From Candidatus Lindowbacteria bacterium RIFCSPLOWO2_12_FULL_62_27 (GTDB taxonomy: Bacteria; Lindowbacteria; 2-12-FULL-62-27), in assembly GCA_001784175.1 (NCBI GenBank), contig MFPR01000030.1, positions 1 through 64,000 of the forward strand: a stretch of 64,000 bases of DNA, in the 5' to 3' direction. The translations under genes were made by a program, and so were the position numbers. A model generated the notes under the pieces. It searched no databases and was not told the origin of the DNA. It saw only the letters and a list, made by a program, of their open reading frames with translations. Positions within the stretch are counted from its first letter, which is position 1. Every line of letters begins with the position of its first letter. This document shows, in pieces, positions 1 through 20,765 of the stretch.

Positions 1-420
1 CGGCAAGGTCGAGGTCGCCGTCGTTGTCGTAATCGCCCCACTGGATGGAACTGTAAATCACCCCCGCGTTGGCGCCCATCGGCTCGGCCACGTTCGTGAA
101 ACTTCCGCCGCCGTTGTTCCGATAGATGATCAATCGTCTGTTTGAGCTCCAATCAACTCCCGACACGGCAAGGTCGAGGTCGCCGTCGTTGTCGTAATCG
201 CCCCACTGGATGGAACTGTAAATCACCCCAGCGTTGGCACCCATCGGCTCGGCCACGTTCGTAAAACTTCCGCCGCCATCGTTCCGATAGATGATCAATC
301 GGTTGTTTGCGACGTCAGATCCCGACACGGCAAGGTCGAGGTCGCCGTCGTTGTCGTAATCGCCCCACTGGATGGAACTCTGAAACACCCCCACGCTGGC
401 GCCCATCGGCTCGGCAGCGT
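1..420 (-). repeat. Second FG-GAP repeat array (3 units visible, continues off the left edge)
   Basis: Same ~160-bp unit as 5200-6310 (cccgacacggcaaggtcgaggtcgccgtcgttgtcgtaatcgccccactggatggaa). Confidence 0.9.
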
Positions 421-3400: not shown

Positions 3401-6400
3401 ATAATATGCATTACCCAGCGTAACCGTTGTGTCAGTCCATGTCGTCTCTGTTGAATTTGTCGTCCGGACCAAATTGACACTATTTGCCCAGTTGGACGTG
3501 TCAGTCTGATTTTTTATGCGATAGATTTTTGTACCAGTATACCCTATTGAGCCGCCATTTGTTTCCTCTGTTGCGGTCGGTAGAATCCACGTCAAAATTG
3601 GATACCCGTCCTGCAATTTTGTAATTGTCAAATTAGTAGGTGTTGCGGGGGCTGTTGTATCCGAACCGGAAGACGTATCTATTAGACCCAGTCGATACGG
3701 TGAAAATGTACCTGCCGTATCGCTAAATTTTGATTTGATCGCAACTTCATCTGTCGTTCCCCACCAATTTCTGTAAACTGGTTGTCCCATTCCGGCCTGA
3801 TTATAGAAATTGCTAACATTATTGCTGTATATGTTATTTTTGGAAATAGTATTATTCGATGACGATATGCGAAGCCAGATTCCGGTATCATTATTTGATA
3901 TTTCGTTTTCGGATATAAAATTCGTATCACAAAACTGATACAGTGCTATGCCAGCCCGTCTGTTAGACAGAATCTTATTGCGCAATAAAAGATGGTTAAA
4001 GCATGAAGAAAAATAGATTCCGAATAGGGAATTGGAATCTACTATGTTATCACTTATGACATTGTCCGATGATGAACTAATCAAAATGCCCGTATTGTTA
4101 TTTGAATAACAGCGATTGCGGCTAATTTTGCTCCCATTCGATGAAATTACATAAACGCCATAGTTCGAATTTAGATTGGCGGTGTTATCGATTATCGTTG
4201 TATTTGTACAAGAATTAAGGAATATGCCTTCAAGATTTGAATTGGCAGTTACATTATTGATTGTATTATTCGAGCTGTAGAACATCTCGATCCCGCGATA
4301 ATTTGATAATGTATTTAGACGGCTTAGTGTATTTGAATCACTCCGGCCAAAATGAATTGCCGCGCCGTTGCCGTTGAATAAATCAATACTGTCATTAGTA
4401 ATTGTTGAATAAGAGACATTATCAAAGTATATGCCGTGGTTCGCTCCTATAATACCCAAGTTTTTTATTAAAAGACCTATTTGAGTATCGGCATATACGC
4501 CATAGTAACCTGTAACAGTATTCGGACCGGGCGGATCAATTATTGTCGATGAGGAATCTTTTCCTATAATACTCAGATAGTCGGTGTCAATTCGCAACGC
4601 TGACGTCTCCAACCCCGGGCTTATTTCAACATAGGTATCATTAAACAATCCAGCATCGACATAGATTGTATCTCCGGATTTGGCTTTTTGGAGGGCCTTG
4701 GCTGGTGAACGGAATGGTTTCGAGACCGAACCGTCGCCCGCTGTGTCAGAGCCGGCCGAGTAAGTGTAGGAATCTGACGCTGTGTACATGTCATTGACAA
4801 ACCATCCGGGGCCTGAATAGGGAGCGGTAATAGTGAACGTTTCCTCCGGCGCCCACGCCGACCGCATCATGCCACCGTCGACGGCCTGGATGGACCAGTA
4901 GTATGTTCCACCGCCAAGGTTGCGAATCAGATACGCCGACGTGTCGTTCTGGGCGTTGCCAAGGATGGTATGGCCAACCGAGTCGGCACTGTTGGTATCA
5001 GCGGCGATAATGTCGGACTTGCCCGGCGCGGAGCCGACGCGCAGGTTGTACGTCATGCCGGTGTCGGGCGTCGTGTCGGTTGAGACTTTCGTCCAGCGAA
5101 ACGTCACGGTGTCGCCCTGGGCGAACGCCGCGCCTTTGGGCGTGTCAGTCACCGGCGCGGCCGGCCGGACATTGGCCGAGGCAATGGTGTCGCTCCGGTA
5201 GAGGATCAATCGGTAGAGTGAGCCAGTATATCCCGACACGGCAAGGTCGAGGTCGCCGTCGTTGTCATAATCGCCCCACTGGATGGAACTCTGATACACC
5301 CCCGCGTTGGTGCCCATCGGCTCGGCCACGCTGGTGAAACTTCCGCCGCCATCGTTCCGATAGATGATCAATCGGTAGTTCAGACTGCCATCTCGTCCCG
5401 ACACGGCAAGGTCGAGGTCGCCGTCGTTGTCGTAATCGCCCCACTGGATGGAGCTGAACCAGACCCCCGCGTTGGCACCCATCGGCTCGGCCACGTTCGT
5501 GAAACTTCCGCCGCCGTCGTTCCGATAGATGATCAATCGCCTGCTTCCGTCATATCCCGACACGGCAAGGTCGAGGTCGCCGTCGTTGTCGTAATCGCCC
5601 CACTGGATGGAACCTTCCCGCACCCCCGCGTTGGCGCCCATCGGCTCGGCCACGTTCGTGAAACTTCCGCCGCCGTTGTTCCGATAGATGATCAATCGTT
5701 TGGCCGCGCTGTTATCAAGTCCCGACACGGCAAGGTCGAGGTCGCCGTCGTTGTCATAATCGCCCCACTGGATGGAACTCTGATACACCCCCGCGTTGGT
5801 GCCCATCGGCTCGGCCACGCTGGTGAAACTTCCGCCGCCATCGTTCCGATAGATGATCAATCGGTTGTTTGCGCCGTTATCAATTGTTCCCGACACGGCA
5901 AGGTCGAGGTCGCCGTCGTTGTCGTAATCGCCCCACTGGATGGAACTCCAATCCACCCCCGCGTTGGCGCCCATCGGCTCGGCCACGTTCGTGAAACTTC
6001 CGCCGCCGTTGTTCCGATAAATGATCAATCGTTTGTTCCCGCTGCCATCCTGTCCCGACACGGCAAGGTCGAGGTCGCCGTCGTTGTCGTAATCGCCCCA
6101 CTGGATGGAACTCAAATACACACCCGCGTTCGCGCCCATCGGCTCCGCCACGTTCGTGAAACTTCCGCCGCCGTTGTTCCGATAGATGATCAATCGGTTG
6201 GTTGTGCCGTCAAATCCCGACACGGCAAGGTCGAGGTCGCCGTCGTTGTCGTAATCGCCCCACTGGATGGAACTGTAATGCACCCCCGCGTTGGCGCCCA
6301 TGGGTTCTGTGTCTTTGGTGAACCCCGACGGCTTGGCGTTGACGACGGAGTCGGAGTAGAAACTTTCGTTCGGAAACGCCGCCCCGTCCCGCGCGGTCAC

Positions 6401-8131: not shown

Positions 8132-8195
8132 GAACGCCAACTCTTTTGTGGATGCAGGCGAGCGTACACGTGCGCGTTCCACCGGTCGTCGATCA

Positions 8196-9629
8196 CTATT
8201 TCAGGTATCCATTAATGGTAATACCACTTGCGGTACTTGATTTGACGACTCCTCCGGCAGGGACAAATATTGGTAACGCCAATGTCAGAGTGGACGCCTC
8301 CCTGTCTTCGGCTGTTCCAACACTCGAATAAGCTGTGTTCCAGATTCCCTCCGCAAGTGTGTAGATCGACCCGCCGACCGTGAATTGCAAACTCGACCCG
8401 CTCGGACAATAAGCTTGCGATACAATCAGGAGTTTTCCTGTGGGAACCGTATAATTCACAGAGGACGTCACAGATTCTAAAATGACACTGACACCAGATG
8501 AAACCAAAAAGCCATTTATCGTGAAGGTATCAGTCGTACTTGTTTTAACTACGGCGGCTGCCGGTAGGATTATTGGTTGCGAGAGCGTAAGATTATTCAA
8601 TCCAATGGCGTTTGAAGAGTTGCTTAAAAAATCCCCTTTATTCCAGCCAGCCGAGCCATAAATGTCTAAAATCGTGTAGGTACTTGCACCGATGGTTACT
8701 TGCAATGTTGCAGCCGCCACATTGGAGTAGACCTGCGTGACATAAAGCGTTTTACCGGTGGGGACTGTGTAATTGACCAGCGAGGAAACCTGGGAAAAAA
8801 CGGGTGTCATGCCAATTGTTCCGTCCGGGAAGCGCAGGTCACCGCCCCCTCCGATAATCGTCCCATCAGATTTTTCGAACGTGTCGGCTTTGACCGTGCC
8901 CGATACGTGCAAAGTGGCCGTAGGTGTATCTGTCCCAACGCCCACGTAACCAGATGTGTCGATCAACATCCGCGTCACGCCTGCGTCTTCATCTTCAACT
9001 GAAAACGATCCGGGTTTCTTGGACGAACCCGTCCCCGCCGACCGCATATTCCATTTCCGGCCACCGGCAGATGAGTTGCTAACCTGCACGTACACGTCCG
9101 CCCCGTTGTTTGCGACGGTCAAATTTCTACCGGGACTGGATGTGCCGATGCCGACATACCCGTTGTCCTTGACGACCAGCGCAGTGTCCTTCACTGTTAA
9201 CGTGTCTTTGACCGTAAACGATCCCGATGCCTGTGCCGAGCCGGCCAAAAACGCCGCCGTATCCGCATAGAGGGCATAGGGGGACGCCAACAGTTTTCGC
9301 CGCGGCGTCATCTCCGCGTTGCCGGCGATGGAAACGCCCAACCAATACTGCGTGTCAAACGCCAATGTCAATGGCGTGACACTGCCCAGTTCGACATCAA
9401 ACACGCCGCTTGTGATAGATACCGAAGACTGGGCTTCCGTCCACAGTGAAGACCCGCCTGAGGGAACATTATACATTCTAAATGTCATGGAGTAGTTGCC
9501 CTGCAGGCGGACTCCGTTGGTATCTGTCAGTTGACCTTGAAAAGAAATTAGACGCGGCGCGTTGGCGTAGGCCGGAATTGCAATAAAAAAAAGGACCAGA
9601 ATGCAACAAACCACGTTTCTCAATATCAT
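8196..9629 (-). CDS. Secreted tail-fibre-like protein (477 aa)
   Basis: Signal peptide; APRLISFQGQLTD N-domain; GYVGIGT..P repeats typical of fibre proteins; duplicated C-terminal NYTVPTGK module; SD GGAGGAGG upstream. Confidence 0.75.
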   Translation of the reverse strand: MILRNVVCCILVLFFIAIPAYANAPRLISFQGQLTDTNGVRLQGNYSMTFRMYNVPSGGSSLWTEAQSSVSITSGVFDVELGSVTPLTLAFDTQYWLGVSIAGNAEMTPRRKLLASPYALYADTAAFLAGSAQASGSFTVKDTLTVKDTALVVKDNGYVGIGTSSPGRNLTVANNGADVYVQVSNSSAGGRKWNMRSAGTGSSKKPGSFSVEDEDAGVTRMLIDTSGYVGVGTDTPTATLHVSGTVKADTFEKSDGTIIGGGGDLRFPDGTIGMTPVFSQVSSLVNYTVPTGKTLYVTQVYSNVAAATLQVTIGASTYTILDIYGSAGWNKGDFLSNSSNAIGLNNLTLSQPIILPAAAVVKTSTTDTFTINGFLVSSGVSVILESVTSSVNYTVPTGKLLIVSQAYCPSGSSLQFTVGGSIYTLAEGIWNTAYSSVGTAEDREASTLTLALPIFVPAGGVVKSSTASGITINGYLK

Positions 9630-9660
9630 CTACAACCTCCTCCTCGGGATGCCGGATTCA

Positions 9661-10392
9661 TCAAAAATCCTTGTAACAAGAGTTCCACGTTTTATTAGAT
9701 GAAGATCCGCAATCGTTGGCGGCCACGATGGTTGCTGTGTAGGTGTAATAAGACGTCCACCCCGAAGGGCAAGATGGAGCGGTCCCACCGCATTTCGAAA
9801 TTGTGATCCACGCCTTCTGTCCCGTGAGATTAGCACCACTTCCGACGAACGCCGTCGCCGTGACCGTGCCGCTGACGTCGAGTTTTGTGGCCGGATTCAG
9901 CGTGCCGATTCCGATGTTACCCATTTTGCTGACAAGAAAATTCGAGCCGCTGACCGTGAAGGTGTCCAGAACATAGAAGGAACCCGAAGCGGAGGCGCCC
10001 GGGGCGAGATAGAAAGCGGTGTCGGACCAAAATGAGTAGGGAGCAGACAGCAGTTTCCGGCGCGGGGTCATTTCCGGATTTGAGCCAACCGTCACGCCGA
10101 TCCAATATTGGGTATCGAAGGGAAGCGTCAGGGGAGTGACATTGCCGAGTTCGACATCAAAAACGCCGTTGGAAACCGAAACAGAAGACTGAGCTTCCGT
10201 CCAAAGCGGTGATCCGCCGGATGAGATGGTGTACATTTTGAATGTCATCGAATAAGTCCCCGTCAATCGGACGCCGACCGAGTCGGTTAATTGACCTTGG
10301 AAGGAGACCAATCTGGGGGCGCCGGCGAACGCGGATGGCATCGAAATCGAAAACAACAGGCCACAAATCGCCAATCTGGAACAAAGGGTCAT
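9661..10392 (-). CDS. Secreted tail-fibre-like paralog with Cys-containing C-terminal tip (243 aa)
   Basis: N-domain highly similar to 8196-9629 (APRLVSFQGQLTD...TPRRKLL); GNIGIGT..PATKLDV.G; C-terminal CGGTAPSCPSGW...C...C; SD GGAGG upstream. Confidence 0.75.
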   Translation of the reverse strand: MTLCSRLAICGLLFSISMPSAFAGAPRLVSFQGQLTDSVGVRLTGTYSMTFKMYTISSGGSPLWTEAQSSVSVSNGVFDVELGNVTPLTLPFDTQYWIGVTVGSNPEMTPRRKLLSAPYSFWSDTAFYLAPGASASGSFYVLDTFTVSGSNFLVSKMGNIGIGTLNPATKLDVSGTVTATAFVGSGANLTGQKAWITISKCGGTAPSCPSGWTSYYTYTATIVAANDCGSSSNKTWNSCYKDF

Positions 10393-10414
10393 TGAATGGG
10401 TTACCTCCCAACTT

Positions 10415-10751
10415 TCATTTGATTTTAATGTTCAGACCAATCCTGTGCGTCTGCCCCAAATCATCGTGTGTGCTGTACGCGTAATCGAGCGCAAGGAACT
10501 TGATGTTGAACCCGATGCCGGCAAGGAATTCCCGGGAGTCGGTGGTGTAGCCGCCGCGCAGAGCGAGGACGCGGGAGAACAGGCGGATTTCGCCGCCGAA
10601 CCGGTACGAGAGGTCGCCTTCCTCGTTTTCAACATCGGCGGCCAGCGTCATCCATGTGAACGGATCAAGACTCGCGCCACCGCGGATCCGCAGTGGGAAC
10701 TTTTCGTCGACGGATTTGAAATGAAATGTCGGGGCGATGAGATTTTCGACC
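10415..10751 (-). pseudogene. 5'-truncated PorV/PorQ-family gene (last 111 codons only)
   Basis: 98/111 aa identical (manual alignment) to the C-terminus of 59055-60038. Homology stops abruptly upstream of VENL at ~10751. Confidence 0.85.
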
Positions 10752-10782
10752 GGGACAATCTGGTTCAGTTGTATCTGATGGT

Positions 10783-11319
10783 TCATTTTCGTTTGATGCT
10801 CTCCATATCGCCCTTGGTCAAAAGTAGACGTTCGTCTACAGCATCGAGAAGATCGCCGGCCGGCATGGCATCCGCGAAATAGGCGAGTTTGACGACAACA
10901 CCATCCTCTTTGGCGAAATTTACTGCCGGGATAAAATCGGAGTCGGCGGTCAGGAGAGTGGCGTGGGTGATCAGATGTTTTGAGGCCAGACGCACAAGAT
11001 CGACGCCGAATAGCATGTCGACCTGTTTTTGAACGGGGCCGCCCGGCCGCATTTTCAATTTGCCTTCACGGACTTCAAAGCGTTCCAGCCTTGTCAGGAC
11101 CCCGAAAAATTTTCGGGCGTGCTCCAATCGGGCCATATCCGCCGGAGCGGGATTGGATCCCACAAAGGGAAGGCAGTTGTAATAATACGTTCGAAGATGT
11201 TCGTGCGGCACGGCCAGACGGACGGATAGTTTTGCGAAGTCGATTTTCAAGCCGCCGTATTGATAGAGGAGGAGATTGTCGAGATATCCGCCGTCGATGA
11301 GCACAACCACTCTGCTCAC
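10783..11319 (-). CDS. NYN-domain (LabA/DUF88, PIN-like) ribonuclease
   Basis: IDGGYL...QKQVD...ADSDF acidic PIN/NYN motifs. Confidence 0.9.
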   Translation of the reverse strand: MSRVVVLIDGGYLDNLLLYQYGGLKIDFAKLSVRLAVPHEHLRTYYYNCLPFVGSNPAPADMARLEHARKFFGVLTRLERFEVREGKLKMRPGGPVQKQVDMLFGVDLVRLASKHLITHATLLTADSDFIPAVNFAKEDGVVVKLAYFADAMPAGDLLDAVDERLLLTKGDMESIKRK

Positions 11320-11333
11320 TTGGAGGGGCCCAT

Positions 11334-11408
11334 AAAAAAACTGCCCGTCATCCGTATCTCGGCTGTCCTTACGGACCCGAGAGGACGACGGGAAGGATAT
11401 CTACATCT
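11334..11408 (-). ncRNA. Candidate structured leader / antitoxin-like RNA with U-tract upstream of NYN gene 1
   Basis: Minus strand CCCGUCGUCC-UCUCGG-GUCC(GUAA)GGAC-AG-CCGAGA-UAC-GGAUGACGGG-CAG-U7: nested stems with a GNRA loop. Confidence 0.55.
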
Positions 11409-11414
11409 GAAACT

Positions 11415-11444
11415 ACTATACCCATCGGAACGGAAGTTTGTCAA
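11415..11444 (-). promoter_or_regulatory. sigma70-type promoter for NYN gene 1 and its leader
   Basis: TTGACA-18 bp-TATAGT on the minus strand. Confidence 0.7.
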
Positions 11445-11802
11445 CTTGAAGGAGGCGGCGGTCGCAACCGGCCGACACTCCCGGTATAGGCGCAGTACTA
11501 CACCATCCCCTGAAAGATTCGGGGTGGATGATACACCTGAGATGACATTCCGTCCGTGGTTGTCAGCCCTTGCCGTTTCCCCTCCGCGCCCAGAGTCGTC
11601 AACAGGCATCCTTCGGGCTACCCCCTTTGCAGAATCAAGCGAATAAATGAATCAGGTTTATAAGGTGCCGGATGCCAACTGTATATATATACAAAGTATA
11701 GGTGATTCCAAGCCATAATCAAGCCGTCTTTCCCGAATACCAACACAGTCTACCATGCTCGCCTTTTGCGAGCAAGGCATGCGTGGGCGCATAATGCCCC
11801 GG

Positions 11803-12072
11803 ATGAAAAAATCGACGTTCACACCGCTTTACGCTGTGTTTCGAAAAAAGCTGGTGTCCATGCGGAAGGCCGCCGGCCTGACCCAGCGCGATCTGGCCAA
11901 GAGGCTCAAGCGGGAGCATTCTTTTGTCGCCCGAATTGAACAGGGCGAACGGCGGCTGGACGTGGTTGAGTTCTACTGGGTCTGCCGCGCCTGCGGCGTC
12001 CCGCCGGACAAGACGGCAAGCGAAATAATGAGGGGGATCATGTCACAGGATACTTCGAAACGAGGATCCTAA
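11803..12072 (+). CDS. XRE-family HTH transcriptional regulator
   Basis: GLTQRDLAKRL...FVARIEQGERRLD. Start placed at ATG 11803, 7 nt after a CATAAT -10-like box; upstream in-frame starts exist. Confidence 0.85.
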   Translation: MKKSTFTPLYAVFRKKLVSMRKAAGLTQRDLAKRLKREHSFVARIEQGERRLDVVEFYWVCRACGVPPDKTASEIMRGIMSQDTSKRGS

Positions 12073-12101
12073 TTCCAACCTCCAATTTCATGCGATTTCC
12101 C

Positions 12102-12130
12102 TTGACAGACAACGGAATCTGAATGACTAT
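12102..12130 (+). promoter_or_regulatory. sigma70-type promoter for NYN gene 2 and its leader
   Basis: TTGACA-17 bp-GACTAT. Confidence 0.55.
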
Positions 12131-12136
12131 TCGGCC

Positions 12137-12195
12137 ATACCACCCCAGTTGCTTCGGCGCTGGGCGCGAAGCCGCCTTCGGGCGGCTTCTGCATT
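12137..12195 (+). ncRNA. Candidate structured leader RNA upstream of NYN gene 2
   Basis: Two adjacent hairpins, both capped by C(UUCG)G tetraloops: CCCAG-UU-GC(UUCG)GC-G-CUGGG and GAAGCCGCC(UUCG)GGCGGCUUC. Confidence 0.55.
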
Positions 12196-12208
12196 ATAAG
12201 GGGTCCAC

Positions 12209-12832
12209 ATGATTACGGTCGTCTATATTGATGCGTTCAATCTGTATTTCGGTGCGCTCAGAGGCACTCCGTACAAATGGCTGGACCTCTCCCAACTCTG
12301 CCGCCACATGCTCCCGAAAAATGAGATCAAGGCCATCAAATACTACACTGCGCTTGTGACCCCGCGAGCCAAAGATCCGGAGCAACCGATCCGTCAGCAG
12401 ACCTATCTCCGGGCGCTCAAGACCCTGCCGAACCTTTCCATTCATCACGGCCATTTCCTGACACATATCGTCAAAATGCCGCTGGCCTCATCCATTGCCG
12501 GGGAAATGAAGTATGCGGAAGTCGTGAAGACGGAGGAGAAGGGTTCTGACGTGAATCTGGCGACGCATCTTCTGTACGATGCCTTTCGGGGGGAATTTGA
12601 AGTCGCCGTGGTGATCTCGAACGATTCCGACCTGGTGGAGCCCATTCGGATCGTTACAAAGGAACTGAAAAAAACTGTGGGTGTCTTGAATCCACATGAA
12701 CACCCAAGCCGGGTTCTGCACGCGCAGGCGACCTTTTTCAAAAAAATCCGGCGAGGCGTCTTGAAGGCAAGCCAGTTTCCGGAGATCCTGACGGACGTTC
12801 ACGGCGAGTTTCATAAACCAGATGGGTGGTGA
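12209..12832 (+). CDS. NYN-domain (LabA/DUF88, PIN-like) ribonuclease
   Basis: YIDAFNLY...EEKGSDVNLA...ISNDSDL motifs. Confidence 0.9.
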   Translation: MITVVYIDAFNLYFGALRGTPYKWLDLSQLCRHMLPKNEIKAIKYYTALVTPRAKDPEQPIRQQTYLRALKTLPNLSIHHGHFLTHIVKMPLASSIAGEMKYAEVVKTEEKGSDVNLATHLLYDAFRGEFEVAVVISNDSDLVEPIRIVTKELKKTVGVLNPHEHPSRVLHAQATFFKKIRRGVLKASQFPEILTDVHGEFHKPDGW

Positions 12833-12862
12833 TCGATATCTTCTTCGGCAGAGGCAAGCTGA

Positions 12863-13645
12863 TCAGTTCCATTTCCGGCGCCGGCGGCGGCCCTTCCCTT
12901 TTCCTTTCAGGTGCTTCCTATACCATCTCCGGTACTCGACCCTCTCTCGCTTGTACGATGCCACCTGATGCCAGCTACAACCTGCGGTTCCGGCGCGTTT
13001 GGCCGCCCGGTCGAGCATGGACAGATCCAAGATCCAGTTGCCCTCGACGCGCCGGAGCACCCTGTACTTCGCCATGAGGTTTAGTCGCCTGCGCACGACG
13101 GTCACGTCCAAATGCGTATCCTTTGCCAGCTCGGTGGGATTGATGCGCACACCAGCCCGAATGGCTATGATGATTCTCATACCAGATGCGCCGAGACACC
13201 GGTCTCGGAAGGCGGCGTGCCCCAAATTGAAATCAGGAATGTTAGAAAATTGCAAATTTGCAGGGTTTACATTGGACTGCTTACGCATTTCCGGCATTGG
13301 ACTGTTTTGACTCGTCCGGCCAATGAACTGTTCGAGCATTCTTTTATTGAGAAACCACAGACTCCCTTCTTTGTAACTACCTGGTTTAACGCACCGAATC
13401 CACCCGTTTTTTATTGCTCGCCGGACAGACGGATCACAACCGCTTCGGCTCAATCCACACTCTTTGGCCAACTGACGGCGTGAGAACAAAAAATGGGCCG
13501 CGCGCGCCAGTTTAACTCGTCTCAGGATTCCGAGGGTCACCTTGCAATCTGTATTTCCCTGCCGACCTGTCCACGGATACCGGGCGACCATAAACGCAAG
13601 ACGATCGATATCGTCGGAGCTGAAGTCGATATCATTCTCATCCAT
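12863..13645 (-). CDS. Hypothetical basic DNA-binding protein with two winged-HTH-like segments (possible replication or regulatory protein)
   Basis: SRRQLAKECGLSRS and INPTELAKDTHLDVTVVRRRLNLM; SD GGAGG upstream; basic tail. Confidence 0.6.
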   Translation of the reverse strand: MDENDIDFSSDDIDRLAFMVARYPWTGRQGNTDCKVTLGILRRVKLARAAHFLFSRRQLAKECGLSRSGCDPSVRRAIKNGWIRCVKPGSYKEGSLWFLNKRMLEQFIGRTSQNSPMPEMRKQSNVNPANLQFSNIPDFNLGHAAFRDRCLGASGMRIIIAIRAGVRINPTELAKDTHLDVTVVRRRLNLMAKYRVLRRVEGNWILDLSMLDRAAKRAGTAGCSWHQVASYKRERVEYRRWYRKHLKGKGKGRRRRRKWN

Positions 13646-14171
13646 CGCAAATCCTCCCTACGCCGGAACCGGTTCTGCCAGCGAGGCAGGTCTGAACGGT
13701 TGCCGGCATTGATTCACTTCATGGTCGTACGTGATACATGATTATTTGAAGGGAGACGATATAGTGACGTATTAATAATGTCTCATCGGCTAACACAACA
13801 AAATAGCCGGGTGTGAAATGGCTCCTAAGGACCACTGCTTTGGGTGATTTTTTGCCCGGATGTCTCCATAATTTTCCCGTTTGGTTCAGTATCTTACCCA
13901 TGGATGTTCTGGATTTTATATCGTCTTGAGGAGTAATATGGGCAAAATCTTAGCCCGTAACAGAGGCGTGTCAGATTGTTTGTCAGCACACCACTCGTCC
14001 CGGTCGGCGGTCTTGTTTGTAGCTTCTTAGCCATTCCATTTTTGGCGGGTAGACGACATTTACGCCGTCCGACTCTTTGAAGATACCGCTGTGTTGGAAA
14101 GAACCCTCACGAATTGATAATATTGCTTCTAGCGGGATGGTGGAATAGGGGGCACTGGAATTAAGGGGGGA

Positions 14172-14765
14172 ATGATTTTGCGATCGAAGGAAGACCGTGC
14201 ATTTTTGGAGAAAAGGAGAAAAACCGCTGTTGACTTACATCAGCAGGGGGAAAAAATATCACGGATTGCCAAGAGATCCCGTGTTACTGTGCGCAGTGTT
14301 TCGAGGTGGTTATCGGCATATAGGGCTGGTGGATTATCGGCCTTAAATTCCAGGATTTCTCCCGGCCGCCCAAAAAAATTGACGAAGGACCAAGAAATGG
14401 TGCTTGTAAAGAAACTCTCGAATTTTAGGAAAACTTGGACGTACGAAGAGGCTAAACAGTTCATAAAACGGCAAATTGGGATTGATTACCGTCCACATTC
14501 TTTTACAAGATTGTTCACAAGGCTTGGCCTTCACATCGACTACGATGCTGTCGAGCATAGACTCAGATTTTATTCAGACTTGGATGAAGCCGCCGCCGAT
14601 TTTCTCATCGATCGAATTATTGGGACTATTTCTGCCGATGAGAAACTTCCGACAGCAAGAAAGGCCCGCATCCGTAAAGTTCTCGAACAGTTGGATCCGG
14701 ATCTCGCCGATAGATTTATGAATAAAAATTATGGTGCTCGAAAATTCGGCAGATATTTTTCTTAA
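14172..14765 (+). CDS. HTH/winged-HTH protein resembling the IS630 transposase N-terminus, no DDE domain
   Basis: IAKRSRVTVRSVSRWL...GGLSAL...PGRPKKLT...WT...I...GIDY...L.RLG pattern; unrelated C-terminus. Confidence 0.7.
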   Translation: MILRSKEDRAFLEKRRKTAVDLHQQGEKISRIAKRSRVTVRSVSRWLSAYRAGGLSALNSRISPGRPKKLTKDQEMVLVKKLSNFRKTWTYEEAKQFIKRQIGIDYRPHSFTRLFTRLGLHIDYDAVEHRLRFYSDLDEAAADFLIDRIIGTISADEKLPTARKARIRKVLEQLDPDLADRFMNKNYGARKFGRYFS

Positions 14766-15653
14766 CTGTATTCGTTAAGATTTGATTTTTTCATCGGATT
14801 ATTAACTGTAAACGCTAATATTCGGCAGGTGCCATTTACCTGCGCCCCTTATGTCCGCAGTCAGCAACCCTCATTACCCCCTTCCGCCGTCGATAGGACA
14901 TTATTAATACGACAGCCTATGGGCTTCCCGAAATATTCAAATATAAAATCGGCACTATGAAAATTAGTGTGGCACTCGACATTTTCACAATTGCGCCGGC
15001 GCTGGCGTTATGGCTCCTCCGGATTGACAATGCGTGGATATACCGCCAGATGGCAGAACGACTGGGTCTCAAGGGAGAGGGGAGTGTCAGCGGTGCGGTC
15101 ATGGTATGCCGCTGGGAGAGCGGCAAAGTGGAGATATCCCGACGTTATCGGGAGAAGATTGCAGCAGTCGCCCGCGAAGTCAATTGGCCTCTGAATCAAT
15201 ATACAGGACTATTTCTACAGTTTAACCAGATCGCGGACAAAATAGACGACAGAGAGGTCACCTATACACACTCGCTGAAGGTTGCACAATATGCTGAAGC
15301 AATCGGGCGACGGATGATACGGCATCTGGTCCGCGAAACACTCAAACAGTTTCCTCTCGATTTTGGCGGGATGGAGCCGAAAGTTCTAAGGAAAAAAATA
15401 CTCGCGATGCTCGTTAAATCCGCCATGTTTCACGACATCGGAAAAGTTTGGATTTCAAATAGAATCATCCGCAAGGCCGGGCCTCTGACTGAATCTCAGA
15501 AACAGAAGATGCGAAGCCACGCGATATTGACCGATTTCATCATCTCGTCGTTACTGCCCATGGAAACAGGAATCGCAAAGGTTGCATCAATGCACCATGA
15601 GCTTCTGAATGGCATGGGCTATCCAAAAGGATTAACAGCGGGACAGATTCCTC

Positions 15654-17040
15654 GAGTCAATCCCTTTTTTAGTTGAAAATGCTGCATGACTCACGCCGCT
15701 TTAGCCTCGCAGACAACATGTTGTTTCATGGCCAGCCGAAGTTTCTTGAGTAAGCGGTGGCCTTTTACTCTTCGGAGCCAGGGCTCGACTTCCAGCAGCG
15801 CGGAGGCTACCCAGCGTTGCCGCTGATCGCTGTTCTTCCAGCTCGTGACGCGCCCGGTATATTGTCCGACCATGCTGTTGAGCGACTCGATGCAATTCGT
15901 CGTTTTGAAACTCGTACCCAACTCGGAAAACACCCCCAGCCGATGAAGCGTCAGCGTTTCCTCCAAGCCTTCATCCAAACTGGCAACCGCCGACACATTC
16001 AGCCGTTTGAGTTCCTGCCGAACGTTCATCAGCTTCTGCCTGGCCACGTCGTATGTCAGTTCGTCGTAGGCGTCCTGAAGTTTTCCGCGAAACTCGCCCT
16101 GATGCTTTTTGTCCAGATAGCTCACCACATTCTCGCGCTTATGCCACTGACAGCGCTGCACACACGCGCCTGCGCCGATCACATCCGTGATCGCCTTCCG
16201 AATACCTTTTGCTCCGTCGATGATGAACAGAATTTCTTCCTCCATCTTCAAGCCTCGCTGCACCAAGCCGCTGAGAAACTCCTTGCACACCCGCGCGTTC
16301 TCCGTGCTCGTCTCGATGAACCCCAAAACCAGCTTTTTTCCCTCGATGGTGATCCCGAGGGCGATCACCACCTCCAACTCGCCAAGACTTTTGCCGTCAA
16401 TAAAAATCGCCACGATGTCCTCCTGGCTGAGGTCGCGCTCCATCAATTTCTTCAGTTGCCGGGCCGTCGCGCGGATAAATCGCCTCGACACGCTGTTGCG
16501 CCGGATCCCAAACGTCTCCGGGACCGTCAGCGCCGCCCGTTCGTACTTGCGGCTGCTGAGACCGTTGATCATTCGAGCCAATACCGCATGGTCAATCACT
16601 CGTGGATTCTGCAGCGCCTGATAACTCTGCAATGGAACTTCGCATCCATCATTCGTATTTCGAACGCGAGGCACTTCGATCAGAATTTTCTGGTCGCCCA
16701 AATACACGGACCCCGGATTCTTTCCCCAACGCCCGATGCCGGGGCTTTGCCGGCTGTGCCTCTCTCCAACCAGCCGCCGAACCTCATCCTGCAATTCGTC
16801 GTGGACATCTTTCAGCCCCAGCGGAATCAACATCTGGATCAACTCCACCCTCCCGTTCAAATCGTTACTCGCAGCTTCCATCGCCCGGATCGTCTCCGTT
16901 CGATTTTTTGATTTGCTTCCCGTTCCAAAACGTATTACCTTTTTCATCAGCATGACCTCCTGTTTTTTGGTGTTGTCCTTCGTCAGTCAACACCTTAGCG
17001 AGGTCATGCATCATTTTTCAACTAATTTTAGGACATTCTC
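15654..17040 (-). mobile_element. IS256-family insertion sequence, 1387 bp, 8-bp target duplication GATTCCTC
   Basis: TSD at 15646-15653 and 17041-17048. Imperfect TIRs GAGTCAATCCCTTTTTTAGTTGAAAATG versus reverse complement GAGAATGTCCTAAAATTAGTTGAAAAATG. Confidence 0.93.
15691..16953 (-). CDS. IS256-family (mutator) DDE transposase
   Basis: IFIDG...IIDGAKG...QRCQWHK...TTNCIES motifs. Confidence 0.95.
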   Translation of the reverse strand: MLMKKVIRFGTGSKSKNRTETIRAMEAASNDLNGRVELIQMLIPLGLKDVHDELQDEVRRLVGERHSRQSPGIGRWGKNPGSVYLGDQKILIEVPRVRNTNDGCEVPLQSYQALQNPRVIDHAVLARMINGLSSRKYERAALTVPETFGIRRNSVSRRFIRATARQLKKLMERDLSQEDIVAIFIDGKSLGELEVVIALGITIEGKKLVLGFIETSTENARVCKEFLSGLVQRGLKMEEEILFIIDGAKGIRKAITDVIGAGACVQRCQWHKRENVVSYLDKKHQGEFRGKLQDAYDELTYDVARQKLMNVRQELKRLNVSAVASLDEGLEETLTLHRLGVFSELGTSFKTTNCIESLNSMVGQYTGRVTSWKNSDQRQRWVASALLEVEPWLRRVKGHRLLKKLRLAMKQHVVCEAKAA

Positions 17041-17425
17041 GATTCCTCTGCTCTCACAGATCATTACGGTCTGTGACATATTTGACGCGCTGATTTCTGT
17101 AAGATCCTATAAGCCCGGACTACCGACTGACCGGGCTTTTGAAATATTGTACCAGGGAGCTGAAAAAGGCGAAGTAAACATCCAGGTCGTCAATGTTCTC
17201 AAAAGCATCCATGAGCAAGTCGACAGGCGGAATGTCATTCCCCCATCCACCGAAAAACCCCAACCCAGGACGCGGCCGGTGTCCTTTCGATTGGCTACCG
17301 ACGTTTATGAAAAAATGGCCAAACTGGCCGAGGCGAGCAATCTTTCGCCGGGTTCTATGGCCCGGCAGATCGTTGTGAACCACGTAATTGGGGACTCGGC
17401 CCATGCGTAACGTTGTCACAAATAC

Positions 17426-17872
17426 GTGGCGGGGCCCGTATTATTTTACAGGGACCAGTATCTCCCGGATGTCGGCCTGAAGCGGATGGCACAAATGCGC
17501 GAGTTGGCCGATTTGATAGAGCATCCGGAGGAGGTAAGCGCAATATCTCAGCGGGAGGCGCAAGAGATGTTGATTAAGATCAGCCGGCTGCAGACAGCCC
17601 TTCTCATTCGCGCAGTGGTGCCGGCGGTTGAAAATTGCAGCGATGAGAAACTGCCGGATCGGGACAGGCTTCTCACCCCGGAGGAGACGGGGAAGCGGCT
17701 GGGCAGGAGCGTCCGCTGGATATATCGGAATGCAAAAAATCTGCCGTTCGCCGTCAAGCTTTCCCGAAAATGCCTCCGATTTAGTGAGGCAAGACTGACG
17801 AAGTGGATCGACCAGAAATTGGCCATGAACAGATGTTCTCCATCGGATAAAGACAGGAGGCGGACTCCGTGA
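17426..17872 (+). CDS. Excisionase/AlpA-like HTH protein
   Basis: LLTPEETGKRLGRSVRWIY...LRFSEARLTKWI; overlaps the integrase start. True start may be downstream. Confidence 0.75.
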   Translation: MAGPVLFYRDQYLPDVGLKRMAQMRELADLIEHPEEVSAISQREAQEMLIKISRLQTALLIRAVVPAVENCSDEKLPDRDRLLTPEETGKRLGRSVRWIYRNAKNLPFAVKLSRKCLRFSEARLTKWIDQKLAMNRCSPSDKDRRRTP

Positions 17873-18999
17873 AAGAACGCGGATTGGGGAGTATATACAG
17901 ACCAAAATACAAAAACCCGGGCGGGGCATTGATCGAATCCGGCGTCTGGTGGATCAGGTACTCCTACAGGGGGACTGTGCACAGAGAATCGTCAAAGTCC
18001 CGCAGCAAGGCTGACGCAGTCCGGCTGTTGAAGAAACGGCAGGGGGATATGGCAGCGGGCCGAGCGGGTGGCCCAGACATAGAAAAGACAACCTTTGATG
18101 ATCTGGCCAAATTGATCCTGACGGATTACGAGGTGAATGGCCGCCCGTCGATCAAACGACTTAGCTTCTCCATCAGCCAACTGCGGAATATTTTTGGCGA
18201 TTATAACGCGATGGATATAACGCATGACAGGATTCTTTCCTATATTAAATTGCGGAAAGATGCAGGGGCGGAAAACGCCACCATCAATCGGGAATTGGCC
18301 GCGCTCAAGCGAATGTTCAATCTGGGCAAACGCGCGCTCAAAGTTGGGCAACCTCCGTACATCCCGATGCTTAAAGAGGACAATGTCCGGAAAGGATTCT
18401 TTGAGTATCCTGAATATCAGGCTTTTCTCGATCATCTGCCAACATATCTTCAGCCCGTCATGGAGACGGCATACATCACGGGTTGGAGGATAAAATCAGA
18501 AATTTTGACGCGTCTGAAAATACACCTTGATATGTCGGAGGGCTGGCTCAGACTAGACACGGGTGAAACCAAGAACGGCGAGGGCCGTCAGTTTCCTCTT
18601 ATTCCCGAGTTGAGGAGGGTCATGGAGGACCAGTTGGCACGGACAAGGGAATTGGAAAGAAATACCGGGCGCATCATACCGTGGTTATTTCATCGTGATG
18701 GGCAGCCCATCAAGGATTTTCGATATGTCTGGGACAAGGCCAAGGAACTGGCCGCCGTTCCGGATCGGATTCCCCATGACTTCCGCAGAACGGCCGTCAG
18801 GAACCTCGAGCGCGCTGGAGTCCCAAGATCCGTTGCCATGAAACTTGTCGGACACAAAACAGAGTCCATGTACCGAAGATACGCCATCGTCGAAGAAAGC
18901 GACATGAAAGAGGCGGCGGAGAAACTTGCCGCATTGCAGAAGGCCCGTCGATTCATGACCATGAAAGTAGTTCCTCTCCGCCCCGCAGCCAACGAATAA
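17869..18999 (+). CDS. Tyrosine recombinase / phage-type integrase
   Basis: Catalytic R (TGWR), K (ETKNG), HDFRR, GH and Y (YRRY). Confidence 0.95.
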   Translation: MKERGLGSIYRPKYKNPGGALIESGVWWIRYSYRGTVHRESSKSRSKADAVRLLKKRQGDMAAGRAGGPDIEKTTFDDLAKLILTDYEVNGRPSIKRLSFSISQLRNIFGDYNAMDITHDRILSYIKLRKDAGAENATINRELAALKRMFNLGKRALKVGQPPYIPMLKEDNVRKGFFEYPEYQAFLDHLPTYLQPVMETAYITGWRIKSEILTRLKIHLDMSEGWLRLDTGETKNGEGRQFPLIPELRRVMEDQLARTRELERNTGRIIPWLFHRDGQPIKDFRYVWDKAKELAAVPDRIPHDFRRTAVRNLERAGVPRSVAMKLVGHKTESMYRRYAIVEESDMKEAAEKLAALQKARRFMTMKVVPLRPAANE

Positions 19000-19007
19000 A
19001 GATGAAC

Positions 19008-19027
19008 TGGCAAAGTTTTGGCAAAGT
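19008..19027 (+). repeat. Direct repeat TGGCAAAGT x2, probable integrase arm-type sites
   Basis: At 19008-19016 and 19019-19027, between the int stop and the att core. Confidence 0.65.
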
Positions 19028-19087
19028 CAGGGGTATCTCGTGTGTGCAACTCGTTGAATATCAAATGAAGGGTTGTCAATCCGCCGA

Positions 19088-19128
19088 GGATTTTGAGTCC
19101 CGCGCGTCTGCCGTTCCGCCACTCCGGC
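19088..19128 (-). tRNA. 5' half of tRNA-Leu(CAA), truncated after the anticodon loop (att junction)
   Basis: GCCGGAGTGGCGGAACGGCAGACGCGCGGGACTCAAAATCC, then non-tRNA sequence with no T-arm or acceptor 3' strand. Confidence 0.85.
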
Positions 19129-19143
19129 CTGAATCTGATAGAC

Positions 19144-19172
19144 AGGATACGCATGTCGGCCAGACATGTCAA
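19144..19172 (-). promoter_or_regulatory. Promoter of the tRNA-Leu fragment
   Basis: TTGACA-17 bp-TATCCT, 15 nt upstream of the tRNA 5' end. Confidence 0.7.
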
Positions 19173-19211
19173 TCAAACCCAATTCCGGGCCGGCGGCAAG
19201 TGCATTTGATT

Positions 19212-19231
19212 AAGTTAAAATACTCTAACTT
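19212..19231. promoter_or_regulatory. Putative DtxR/MntR-family operator
   Basis: Imperfect palindrome AAGTTAAAATACTCTAACTT overlapping the -35 (TTGATT-18-TAGGAT) of the iron locus. Confidence 0.6.
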
Positions 19232-19265
19232 GATTTACAGGCAAGAACTGAGTTAGGATACGGGC

Positions 19266-20765
19266 ATGATCGCACGATTTGAGCTTGTCCTCTGTCTTTG
19301 CCTGATGGGGACCATCGCCGGTGTATCCCATCCGGAGGCGTCGCAGGCGCAACCGCCGGGGCCACTTCTTGCGCGGATATATCCGGAAGCGTCCGCCATG
19401 CGGGAGAAGATCCTCTGGCTGGATGAGGGCGCTCAGGCGCAGGTCCGAGCGAAGGCGCGGGCGCCGTTTGACGAGCCTCACGTGTCCTACACCGAAATCG
19501 CCGGCGCGGGTGGCGTGGCCGGGTACGCCTTTGTCGACGACGTCAAGGGACTGCACGAGATGATCACGTATCTGGCGGCTCTGAACTCCGACGGGACCGT
19601 ACGGGCGGTTGAGATTCTGGCGTACCGGGAGGCCTATGGGTTCGAAATCAAGCACGAGCGGTTCCGGCGTCAGTTTGTGGGCAAGCGGCTCGAGGATCCG
19701 ATCCGTGTCGGAGCCGACATCCGCAACATTGCCGGCGCGACGATTTCGACGAACGCGATTTCCACGGGTGTGCGGAAGATTCTTGCGTTGTATGAGGTGG
19801 GGATCAAAGGGATGGTGACGCAGGGCGACAACCGAAATCTGCCACCCTCACCCCGACCCTCTCCCGCCAGAGGCGGGAGAGGGGGGTTACAGGACGGATA
19901 TCTTGAACACGATTCCGGCGCGTCCATCCGTCGATCGAGACCCGTGTGGGGGACGACCCTGACGGTCGAAGCAGCCGACACCGACAGGGGTCGGGACGTT
20001 CTCGAAGCGGCCTTCCGGGATGTCGAATCGCTGACGCCCGTCTTCAGCCGGTATGACACCGCGAGCGAAATTACCCGGCTGAACGCCCGGCCGGGCGAAT
20101 GGCACGATCCCTCTGTGGATTTTGCTGCGCTGTTCGATCTGTCTATGAGCGCGGCGCGCGAAACGAAAGGCTGGTTCGATCCGACCAAGCGCCGGGAGGG
20201 CCTGTCGCATGTGCATTTGGACGGAGGCGCGTCCGGGCGGCCCGCGCGAATGAGACTCGATACAGGAACCGCGCTTGATTTCGACGGCATAGCCAAGGGA
20301 TACGCGGTGGACCGAGTCATCCGGATTCTTCGATCGGCGGGGATTTCAAGCGGTCTCGTGAATTTCGGCGAGAGCAGCATCGCGGCGATCGGGTCGCCCG
20401 CGGGCGCCGGGCGCTGGCAGATTTCCGTGCGCGATCCGCGCCGCCCGAAGTCCGTGGCGACGCAGCCGCTCCTGCGGCTCGCGATCCGCGACGCGGTCGT
20501 GTCCGTGTCGGGCGCTTACGAACGCGGACCTCACATCATCGATCCCTTTACAGGAAAACCGCCTCCGGACAGCCTGCTGGCCGTCGTCGTGGGGCCGTTG
20601 GCGGCGTGGGATGGCGCCCGATCGGACGCGTGGTCGACGGCGCTTTTTGCCTGCGGCCCAAAACTTCTCGCCGACGCCGGCGCGGCCGGGTTTGAGGCCC
20701 TGTGGCTGGGTCCGGCCGGGCCGGTCCGAACGAAGGGATTTTCGGCGTACGAGGAAGGGCCATGA
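19266..20765 (+). CDS. apbE: FMN-binding domain fused to FAD:protein FMN transferase (ApbE)
   Basis: Signal peptide; FMN-bind domain with IAGATIS; ApbE motifs DFDGIAKGYAVD, SVSGAYER, HIIDPFTG, DAWSTALF. Confidence 0.88.
   Translation: MIARFELVLCLCLMGTIAGVSHPEASQAQPPGPLLARIYPEASAMREKILWLDEGAQAQVRAKARAPFDEPHVSYTEIAGAGGVAGYAFVDDVKGLHEMITYLAALNSDGTVRAVEILAYREAYGFEIKHERFRRQFVGKRLEDPIRVGADIRNIAGATISTNAISTGVRKILALYEVGIKGMVTQGDNRNLPPSPRPSPARGGRGGLQDGYLEHDSGASIRRSRPVWGTTLTVEAADTDRGRDVLEAAFRDVESLTPVFSRYDTASEITRLNARPGEWHDPSVDFAALFDLSMSAARETKGWFDPTKRREGLSHVHLDGGASGRPARMRLDTGTALDFDGIAKGYAVDRVIRILRSAGISSGLVNFGESSIAAIGSPAGAGRWQISVRDPRRPKSVATQPLLRLAIRDAVVSVSGAYERGPHIIDPFTGKPPPDSLLAVVVGPLAAWDGARSDAWSTALFACGPKLLADAGAAGFEALWLGPAGPVRTKGFSAYEEGP
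19845..19886 (+). repeat. REP-like palindrome in frame in the interdomain linker
   Basis: CCCTCACCCCGA-CCCTCTCCCGCC(AGA)GGCGGGAGAGGG; encodes PSPRPSPARGGRG. Confidence 0.7.

Follow-up and report, generated by a model that had tools for sequence, protein, structure and literature searches.

PdeL (YahA) of Escherichia coli is described as combining a helix-turn-helix (HTH) with an active EAL phosphodiesterase domain and as binding its own promoter in a manner that depends on cyclic di-GMP (c-di-GMP) (PMC5052742; bioRxiv 10.1101/2021.10.01.462762). The known HD-GYP domains, according to the main text of an architecture survey, sit C-terminal to sensor domains (REC, GAF, PAS, dCache and others), whose outputs they form. 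Here we describe a gene whose product would place an HD-GYP domain between two predicted DNA-binding domains. The gene occupies positions 14957-17410 of a 64,000-nucleotide stretch, referred to below as the window, that comprises positions 1 to 64,000 of the forward strand of contig MFPR01000030.1 (assembly GCA_001784175.1, Candidatus Lindowbacteria bacterium RIFCSPLOWO2_12_FULL_62_27). It is one gene for a 352-residue protein, now cut in two by an element of the IS256 family.

A preliminary description, made from the letters alone, had claimed that removal of the IS256 element and one copy of its target-site duplication gives a continuous 352-residue open reading frame (ORF) with an N-terminal HTH, an intact-looking HD-GYP domain and a C-terminal ribbon-helix-helix (RHH). 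Indeed, when 14957-15653 was joined to 17049-17410 by script, leaving out the insertion sequence (IS) and one duplicate copy, the joined length was divisible by 3 and gave 352 codons, the sole stop being the terminal one. The Pfam HD_5 profile spans both parts of the gene (profile positions 41-124 in the N part, the product of the 5' section, and 122-163 in the C part), and both parts align to adjoining stretches of a single solved protein, V-cGAP3 (5z7c, residues 322-400 and 404-437). Because the profile and the V-cGAP3 alignments continue across the two parts, we regard them as one gene and not as a chance frame. The parts of the gene and of the interrupting element are:

14957-15653, plus strand: the split gene's 5' part (232 codons and one further base), with the HTH, a linker helix and the HD-GYP domain up to the GYP motif
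14981-15181, plus strand, within the 5' part: predicted XRE-type HTH, about residues 9-75, from an AlphaFold2 (AF2) model and fold matches
From about residue 97 of the protein, after the linker helix: start of the HD-GYP domain
15646-15653, no strand: left copy of the target-site duplication, GATTCCTC, an exact 8-bp direct repeat
15654-17040, minus strand: IS256-family IS of 1387 bp, with a transposase ORF at 15691-16953 (minus) and imperfect terminal inverted repeats
17041-17048, no strand: right copy of the target-site duplication, GATTCCTC, an exact 8-bp direct repeat
17049-17278, plus strand: first section of the 3' part, with the last HD-GYP helices (D242, D245, R251 and K254 in full-length numbering) and a Pro-rich linker
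17279-17410, plus strand: predicted RHH tail, residues 310-352, made of a VSFRL strand and two helices, with the stop codon

For the HD-GYP domain, the N part scores 40 bits against the HD_5 cut-off of 27.2, and the C part alone reaches 23.1 bits, below the cut-off, as expected of a 42-residue remnant. The HD-GYP motifs listed earlier were all found in the reconstructed protein (THSLKVA, HDIGK, HHE, GMGYP, DIFDAL and RSYK), with HDIGK at residues 159-163 and HHELLNGMGYP at residues 213-223; the latter fits the family motif HHExh[D/N]GxGYP. The best sequence matches among solved proteins are V-cGAP3 (E 2.9e-14), PmGH and PA4781, the V-cGAP3 match having about 40% identity that is restricted to generic HD-GYP motifs. 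An AF2 model of the left part, made with 35 sequences, had a mean predicted local distance difference test score (pLDDT) of 75.9 and a predicted template modeling score of 0.67. In the VIA fold comparison this model matched PA4781 (4r8z; Z 10.8, root-mean-square deviation [rmsd] 2.6, 139 residues aligned), DvhD (9rbz) and PmGH (4mcw) (Z 10.2 each) and V-cGAP3 (Z 7.8); the three best of these HD-GYP matches had rmsd values of 2.6-3.1 over 129-139 aligned residues. The best 12 Foldseek rows were likewise all HD-GYP structures, with E values of 1.4e-3 to 0.28, none of them at or below 0.001.

The published account of PmGH gives its metal ligands as E185, H189, H221, D222, H250, H276, H277 and D305, and names three further essential residues and two substrate residues (PMC4159591). 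With the PmGH residues so described, the alignment pairs H189 with H105, H221-D222-K225 with H159-D160-K163, H250 with H188, H276-H277 with H213-H214, GYP with G221-Y222-P223, and D305-D308-R314-K317 with D242-D245-R251-K254 of the split-gene protein. Thus, seven of the eight metal ligands have exact aligned equivalents, as do K225, D308, R314, K317 and GYP. PmGH D183 and E185, the latter being the eighth ligand, probably correspond to D98 and E100; the acidic ligand loop holding E100 is one residue longer than in PmGH, and the D-x-E-V-T sequence around E100 is also kept in P0008, a relative introduced below. Family motif, above-cut-off HD_5 match, metal ligands and fold are all present, and the domain looks catalytically complete as judged from its residues.

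The N-terminal domain is supported as an XRE-type HTH by modeling. The AF2 model has helices at residues 9-25, 29-35, 46-54 and 62-74 (pLDDT 70-84). In the VIA comparison, 36 of the 50 rows shown have alignments confined to model residues 3-96, and each of the 36 is an XRE/lambda-repressor-type DNA-binding domain, in line with the HTH claimed in the preliminary description. Their Z scores run from 9.2 down to 6.6, and since values below 8 may reflect a common arrangement, the HTH call leans on the consistency of the family across rows; the rows include Aca10, HigA2, C.AhdI, P22 c2, ImmR and the 434 repressor, with Aca7, MqsA and C-proteins as further fold neighbors. A profile built from the three known N-terminal sequences matched HipB (E 0.025) and a lambda repressor-like protein, all six rows being of this fold.

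The C-terminal domain is likewise supported, again by modeling, as a dimeric RHH. The last 48 residues were predicted to form a homodimer with a score of 0.82, the best of three controls scoring 0.00, which is what the earlier RHH claim would lead one to expect; among solved proteins, this mark is reached by 21 of 30 same-chain pairs and by none of 23 single chains. Contacts agree in full (100%) between runs, the partner pLDDT is at least 87, and the cross-chain contacts (6-8, 5-9 and 4-10) fit an antiparallel ribbon. Because many RHH dimers have been solved, the dimer pass may reflect likeness only. In profile searches the tail scored 16.1 bits for Pfam NikA-like and 15.7 bits for RHH_7 (cut-offs 27) and matched an Arc-like PHROG at E 0.004. 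A profile of two tails matched CopG-family 6iya (E 0.023), 7etr and HP0222, which are three of five rows (E 0.023-0.19).

Relatives of the protein are few. The set searched holds four species genomes of the organism's phylum, which is uncultured; two of the four, this genome counted, carry the N-terminal domain, and among 60 other genomes G002 alone matched. With the 232-residue N part as query, an exhaustive HMMER search gave 33,201 proteins with E values of 0.001 or below, 150 of them listed. Among those 150, P0008 (189 residues, 38% identical) was the only match to the N-terminal domain; HD-GYP matches fill the 150, and weaker relatives of the N-terminal domain could be hidden behind them. 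P0008 is cut off by the end of its 933-bp contig. Word searching with the N part brought up two HD-only matches besides the protein itself, and nothing else; the C part, searched against longer proteins, had no match, and the N-domain profile searched against longer proteins found only the protein itself. Matches were found at four loci in metagenome contigs (two being this sequence and two a 171-residue relative), at two loci in genome contigs and at none in viral contigs. In all, only two other lineages were found for this family, so that three are known, two of them ended by contig ends. Two other candidates were set aside: an incomplete HD-GYP ORF from the beginning of a G001 contig (L021), a different protein that has no RHH, and PADLOC Cas3-HD cross-matches of the N part, which are weak and were read as generic HD similarity.

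The 171-residue protein is the only complete relative found. It belongs to a sister genus (G002, contig C237) and is complete on metagenome contigs L031 and L032. Its residues 24-116 match residues 8-96 of the split-gene protein (39% identity, E 4e-23) and its residues 118-149 match residues 310-341, in the RHH (38% identity, E 2e-4). In this relative, the HTH and RHH blocks thus stand one residue apart, without an HD-GYP domain. Residues 97-309 of the split-gene protein (213 residues, the HD-GYP domain plus the Pro-rich linker) are therefore a module that one lineage has and the other lacks. The module is set exactly between two conserved, predicted DNA-binding domains, its gain and its loss being indistinguishable from three sequences. 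AF2 modeled the relative poorly (pLDDT 60; 41-61 in the RHH region), and Foldseek matches of this model are mostly XRE-type HTH and POU DNA-binding domains, weak at E 0.2-1.1; the relative also matches Pfam HTH_3 at E 0.015, below the cut-off.

The neighborhood of the relative differs from what had been anticipated. On one side lie carbonic anhydrase and CBS-domain genes, and on the other a 90-residue ORF and cas6 (Pfam E 4.3e-21; TIGR01877 69.7 bits against a cut-off of 58.65). No recombinase or integrase gene was found within 3.5 kb around it. The preliminary description had expected homologues of the gene to be linked to mobile elements, and the one relative with a readable context, with cas6 and no integrase in 3.5 kb, departs from that expectation. 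On L032 (1341-2345) the 90-residue ORF, which has no matches, follows the relative, then comes cas6, and the contig ends before any other cas genes. A 54-bp tandem pair after cas6 (L032 2579-2686) was considered as a CRISPR array and was not convincing.

The earlier remark that the three-domain architecture was not known as described held in each place where it was sought. Pfam annotation of 125 of the 151 nearest matches (about 690 residues or less) gave REC, GAF, GGDEF, PAS, HAMP, MASE9, Lit and tandem HD-GYP partners, and a DNA-binding Pfam family in none of the 125. In the main text of the architecture survey, the terms HTH, helix-turn-helix, DNA-binding and ribbon have no occurrence, while its supplements could list rare architectures. 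The literature on HD-GYP with ribbon-helix-helix, as far as covered, describes no fusion, and that on HD-GYP with excisionase returned unrelated work only. The combination of XRE-type HTH, HD-GYP and RHH would be very rare; among known kinds, it would be placed with one-component regulators or trigger phosphodiesterases.

The gene stands next to what looks like a recombination module. The features around it are:

14762-14818, no strand: a pair of candidate operators, palindromes of the form TTAAC-N7-GTTAA and TTAAC-N7-GCTAA spaced 40 bp apart, at 140-195 bp ahead of the start codon
17415-17444, plus strand: promoter-like site, 9/12 matches, between the regulator stop and the excisionase-like ORF, overlapping an inverted repeat (17380-17390/17419-17429)
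17426-17872, plus strand: excisionase-like (xis-like) ORF with an HTH_17 domain in its C-terminal half, overlapping the integrase start by 4 bp
17869-18999, plus strand: tyrosine integrase (int), PF00589 55.6 bits, phrog_1 E 2.5e-44, single copy in the genome

The integrase assignment is solid on these matches; relatives of the integrase were sought in viral contigs and none was found. The split gene, the xis-like ORF and int are all on the plus strand, with the split gene first of the three. The co-orientation claimed earlier therefore stands, and the claimed gap of 15 bp stands only if xis starts at GTG 17426; from the in-frame ATG 17486 the gap from the split-gene stop is 75 bp. The identity of the excisionase is softer than had been claimed: the ORF matches PHROG 66, 'excisionase and transcriptional regulator', at E 1.9e-5, whereas its HTH_17 score of 25.2 bits falls below the cut-off of 27. 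G+C content is 0.45-0.55 over about 8-19 kb, against 0.59-0.67 to the right, where ApbE, an iron-dependent repressor and FeoB are encoded. The xis-int module thus lies at the right end of a low-GC island, and the regulator's position fits that of a mobile-element regulator. Exact matches to the palindromes within the window are these two only, and they lie within a 57-bp stretch upstream of the split gene.

Other genes of the island deserve mention. Directly upstream of the candidate operators, an ORF at 14172-14765 (plus) matches IS630-family transposases in their N-terminal HTH section only (profile positions 1-111 of 299; 72.4 bits, cut-off 100) and may be a remnant or a domesticated HTH protein. 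A 207-residue NYN protein (12209-12832) matches PADLOC HEC-09 end to end (E 3.4e-40) and is preceded by a 105-residue XRE protein (region 11755-12832) with CapH-like and C-protein-like matches; a second NYN gene lies at 10783-11319 (minus), and the NYN genes and XRE gene may form a small defence cassette. The island also has winged-HTH genes. Two adjacent ORFs at 8196-10392 (minus), of 477 and 243 residues, have in common an N-terminal 'Bdello_MAT_N' (mosaic adhesive trimer fibre) NCBIfam match, below the cut-off, and weak PHROG tail-fibre matches, and may be fibre or adhesin genes. Further left in the window, a giant ORF at 2-8182 (minus), of more than 2727 residues, runs off the contig start and has beta-helix/NosD, FG-GAP and DUF1565 repeats; its middle (1-5 kb) has a G+C content of 0.41-0.48 against about 0.65 for the host and looks foreign or mosaic.

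The host's own repertoire bears on the likely ligand. GGDEF matches number 15 in the host genome, and it has no fewer than four further HD-GYP genes; in the same genome, 94% complete, SMODS/CD-NTase had no match and neither had the Cas6 family. Because of the 15 GGDEF matches and the missing SMODS match, c-di-GMP is favored over the signals of the cyclic-oligonucleotide-based antiphage signaling system (CBASS). The suggestion in the preliminary description that the protein degrades CBASS-type messengers finds no support in this host.

The state of the gene is the same wherever it is recorded. All three other records with identical DNA (L029, L030 and L033) have the IS at the same site; L029 is probably the same assembly and L030 has 2 mismatches in 7659 bp. 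L033 is a 2.2-kb contig identical to window positions 13833-16038 that is filed in a metagenome-assembled genome of a different lineage, probably a binning artefact. The shortened product of 239 residues is recorded on 14 contigs; it has lost the RHH, the final helices of HD-GYP, one metal ligand and the residues that bind the substrate. Logan contigs from three runs of three studies (X1, X3 and X6) cross both IS-gene junctions (14700-15695 and 17006-17700), while no Logan contig in these runs crosses the empty-site junction from 15653 to 17049, with the limit that such contigs drop rare variants. A further run (X8) has IS-like pieces only. The runs with this stretch are groundwater and soil metagenomes, and no RNA run is listed among them. 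The IS is in every copy seen, a point not stressed in the preliminary description, and the gene is therefore dead.

The limits of the inserted element, 15654-17040, follow from the two duplication copies and the inverted repeats just inside them (15669-15679/17015-17025, 100%; 15676-15690/17003-17017, 93%), GATTCCTC being the only exact direct repeat of at least 8 bp that flanks the transposase ORF. This ORF scores 210.8 bits for NCBIfam NF033543, 'IS256 family transposase' (cut-off 150), and E 1.2e-29 for Pfam Transposase_mut. Members of the IS256 family duplicate 8-9 bp of target. Transposase, inverted repeats and an 8-bp duplication are all present, and the element is an IS256-family IS. 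Its ends, identical in sequence, also stand at the starts of two other contigs of the same genome (C3 and C25), and metagenome contigs show its termini joined to unrelated flanking DNA as well (loose ends at 15653-15656); the IS is multi-copy and recently active. IS variants about 5-10% different occur at 3-5 times the depth of the gene flanks in the same runs (the set X1, X3, X6 and X8), and a lake-water run yields IS-like pieces that lack the gene; the family of this IS thus extends beyond the present genome. An open frame at 16736-17410 (plus) leaves the right IS end in frame into the 3' part of the gene, and an ATG near 17008, inside the terminal repeat, may give a protein of about 134 residues that still has the RHH.

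We tentatively read the protein as a repressor or autoregulator of the island, in which an RHH-mediated dimer puts both DNA-binding domains on DNA and a cyclic dinucleotide, likeliest c-di-GMP, sets the binding; our confidence in this falls a little short of even. Before the insertion, the protein would have been the island's own regulator, in a cI/ImmR-type position next to int. Dimerized by the RHH, it would use RHH and HTH together to bind operators close to its own promoter and to xis. The HD-GYP module would bind and hydrolyze a cyclic dinucleotide, most likely c-di-GMP of the host; substrate occupancy might shift the relative position of the two DNA-binding domains, and DNA binding, and hence xis and int expression, would follow the nucleotide level. 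The logic is that of a 'trigger phosphodiesterase', as described for PdeL of E. coli. Coupling of excision to cyclic-nucleotide signals, which the preliminary description also proposed, is an inference throughout. With the IS in place, the regulator is lost and any read-through transcription into xis-int would be interrupted. That the protein was an active HD-GYP 'trigger phosphodiesterase' repressor, making island excision a direct read-out of a second messenger, c-di-GMP or cyclic GMP-AMP (cGAMP), we consider unlikely.

A number of points weigh against the repressor reading. Both terminal domains rest on models and on marginal profile matches below family HMM cut-offs, and residues 1-100 match no Pfam family even at E 10. 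A complete catalytic site, if such it is, would fit a plain enzyme as well as a sensor. The relative that stands beside cas6 without an HD-GYP domain suggests that links to mobile elements and to nucleotides are not conserved traits of the HTH-RHH core. No exact repeat of at least 11 bp that could serve as att was found between 18950-19300 and 1-17400, nor any tRNA gene in the window; because of this, and because the contig starts at window base 1, both the left end of the island and its mobility are putative. The statistics of the palindromes are weak (5 matches against 1.9 expected, with 6 of 100 shuffles reaching 5). Coupling in an operon is uncertain because xis may have its own promoter at 17415-17444. 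Finally, no intact copy of the split gene was found among the records and contigs searched.

Some of the same observations would suit other explanations. The palindromes lie upstream of the split gene itself and not of xis, all catalytic residues are conserved, and the host has a c-di-GMP network of GGDEF and further HD-GYP genes, as would be expected if the gene were cargo: an active c-di-GMP phosphodiesterase that altered host motility or biofilm, with DNA-binding domains that only autoregulate and an incidental adjacency to xis-int. Integrative and conjugative elements of the SXT/R391 group carry diguanylate cyclases as cargo. However, two separate DNA-binding domains are more than simple autoregulation would seem to need, the DNA-binding core exists enzyme-free in the 171-residue relative, and xis follows on the same strand after only 15-75 bp; on balance we doubt the cargo explanation. 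The cas6 gene beside the relative, the HEC-09 NYN protein with its CapH-like XRE gene on the island, and the fold neighbors Aca10, Aca7, HigA2, HipB, MqsA and C-proteins point in another direction, in which the HTH-RHH core would be a general regulator of defence or toxin-antitoxin-type loci, the HD-GYP version would be tuned by a nucleotide, and the target would not be xis-int, for example the HEC-09 NYN gene instead. This we find quite improbable: the HEC-09 gene is 2 kb off, has its own XRE gene and is separated by three mixed-strand ORFs, the host genome has no cas6 family match, and XRE folds are so ubiquitous that fold neighbors tell little about targets.

The two remaining explanations turn on what the HD-GYP domain does. 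Inactive HD-GYP proteins exist, e.g., Bd1817 (3tm8), and the acidic ligand loop has one residue more than its PmGH counterpart, so the domain might be a non-enzymatic scaffold or dimerization module in an ordinary constitutive repressor. The exact alignment of seven of eight PmGH metal ligands and of K225, D308, R314, K317 and GYP, together with a plausible equivalent of the eighth ligand that is conserved in P0008, makes this very unlikely. Conversely, the domain might act against defences, by destroying 3'3'-cGAMP of CBASS or the cyclic oligoadenylates of type III CRISPR systems and so shielding the element in a new host. The cGAMP-specific V-cGAP3 is the best solved sequence match, the gene is on a mobile-looking island and its relative adjoins cas6. 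Against this, the V-cGAP3 match covers only generic motifs, the host has no SMODS match, two DNA-binding domains serve no obvious need in such a protein, no relative was found in viral contigs, and the relative that adjoins cas6 is the very one without an HD-GYP domain; we give this explanation hardly any weight.

The significance of the repressor reading is bounded by a gene that is broken in all copies seen, by three known lineages and by an uncultured phylum. If true, it would provide a candidate direct link from second-messenger level to mobile-element excision, and the HD-GYP domain would be a sensor module that plugs into a two-headed repressor and can also be lost from it. The 352-residue protein with the HD-GYP domain and the 171-residue protein without it form a ready-made natural domain-insertion pair.

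Compared with described systems, the protein has something in common with several. With the HD-GYP phosphodiesterases PmGH (4mcw), PA4781 (4r8z), DvhD (9rbz) and V-cGAP3 (5z7c) it has fold, motifs, metal ligands and substrate residues in common; unlike in known HD-GYP proteins, its domain would stand between two DNA-binding domains. The cI/ImmR-type repressors (ImmR 7t8i, P22 c2 and the 434 repressor) have the XRE-type HTH fold in common with it (Z 6.8-7.0). In ICEBs1, the repressor gene lies beside int and is co-transcribed with it. In contrast to the split-gene protein, repressors of this type sense damage or signals via proteolysis (RecA, ImmA) and have no nucleotide hydrolase and no RHH. 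CdbA of Myxococcus xanthus is described as an RHH DNA-binding protein whose DNA binding is tied to c-di-GMP; it is, by the same account, a small, nucleoid-associated direct c-di-GMP receptor, with no enzyme domain and no HTH (PMC7156744). The closest parallel is PdeL, which likewise has an HTH and a cyclic-dinucleotide phosphodiesterase domain in one polypeptide, the activity in our case being predicted from conserved residues. PdeL is reported to bind a palindromic region of its own promoter with a c-di-GMP-dependent output, and it is a chromosomal protein with a LuxR-type HTH, an EAL domain and no second DNA-binding domain. In contrast, the split-gene protein would have an XRE-type HTH, then HD-GYP, then RHH, and its gene heads a xis-int module; if the reading is true, the protein would be an HD-GYP equivalent of PdeL, the EAL trigger enzyme.

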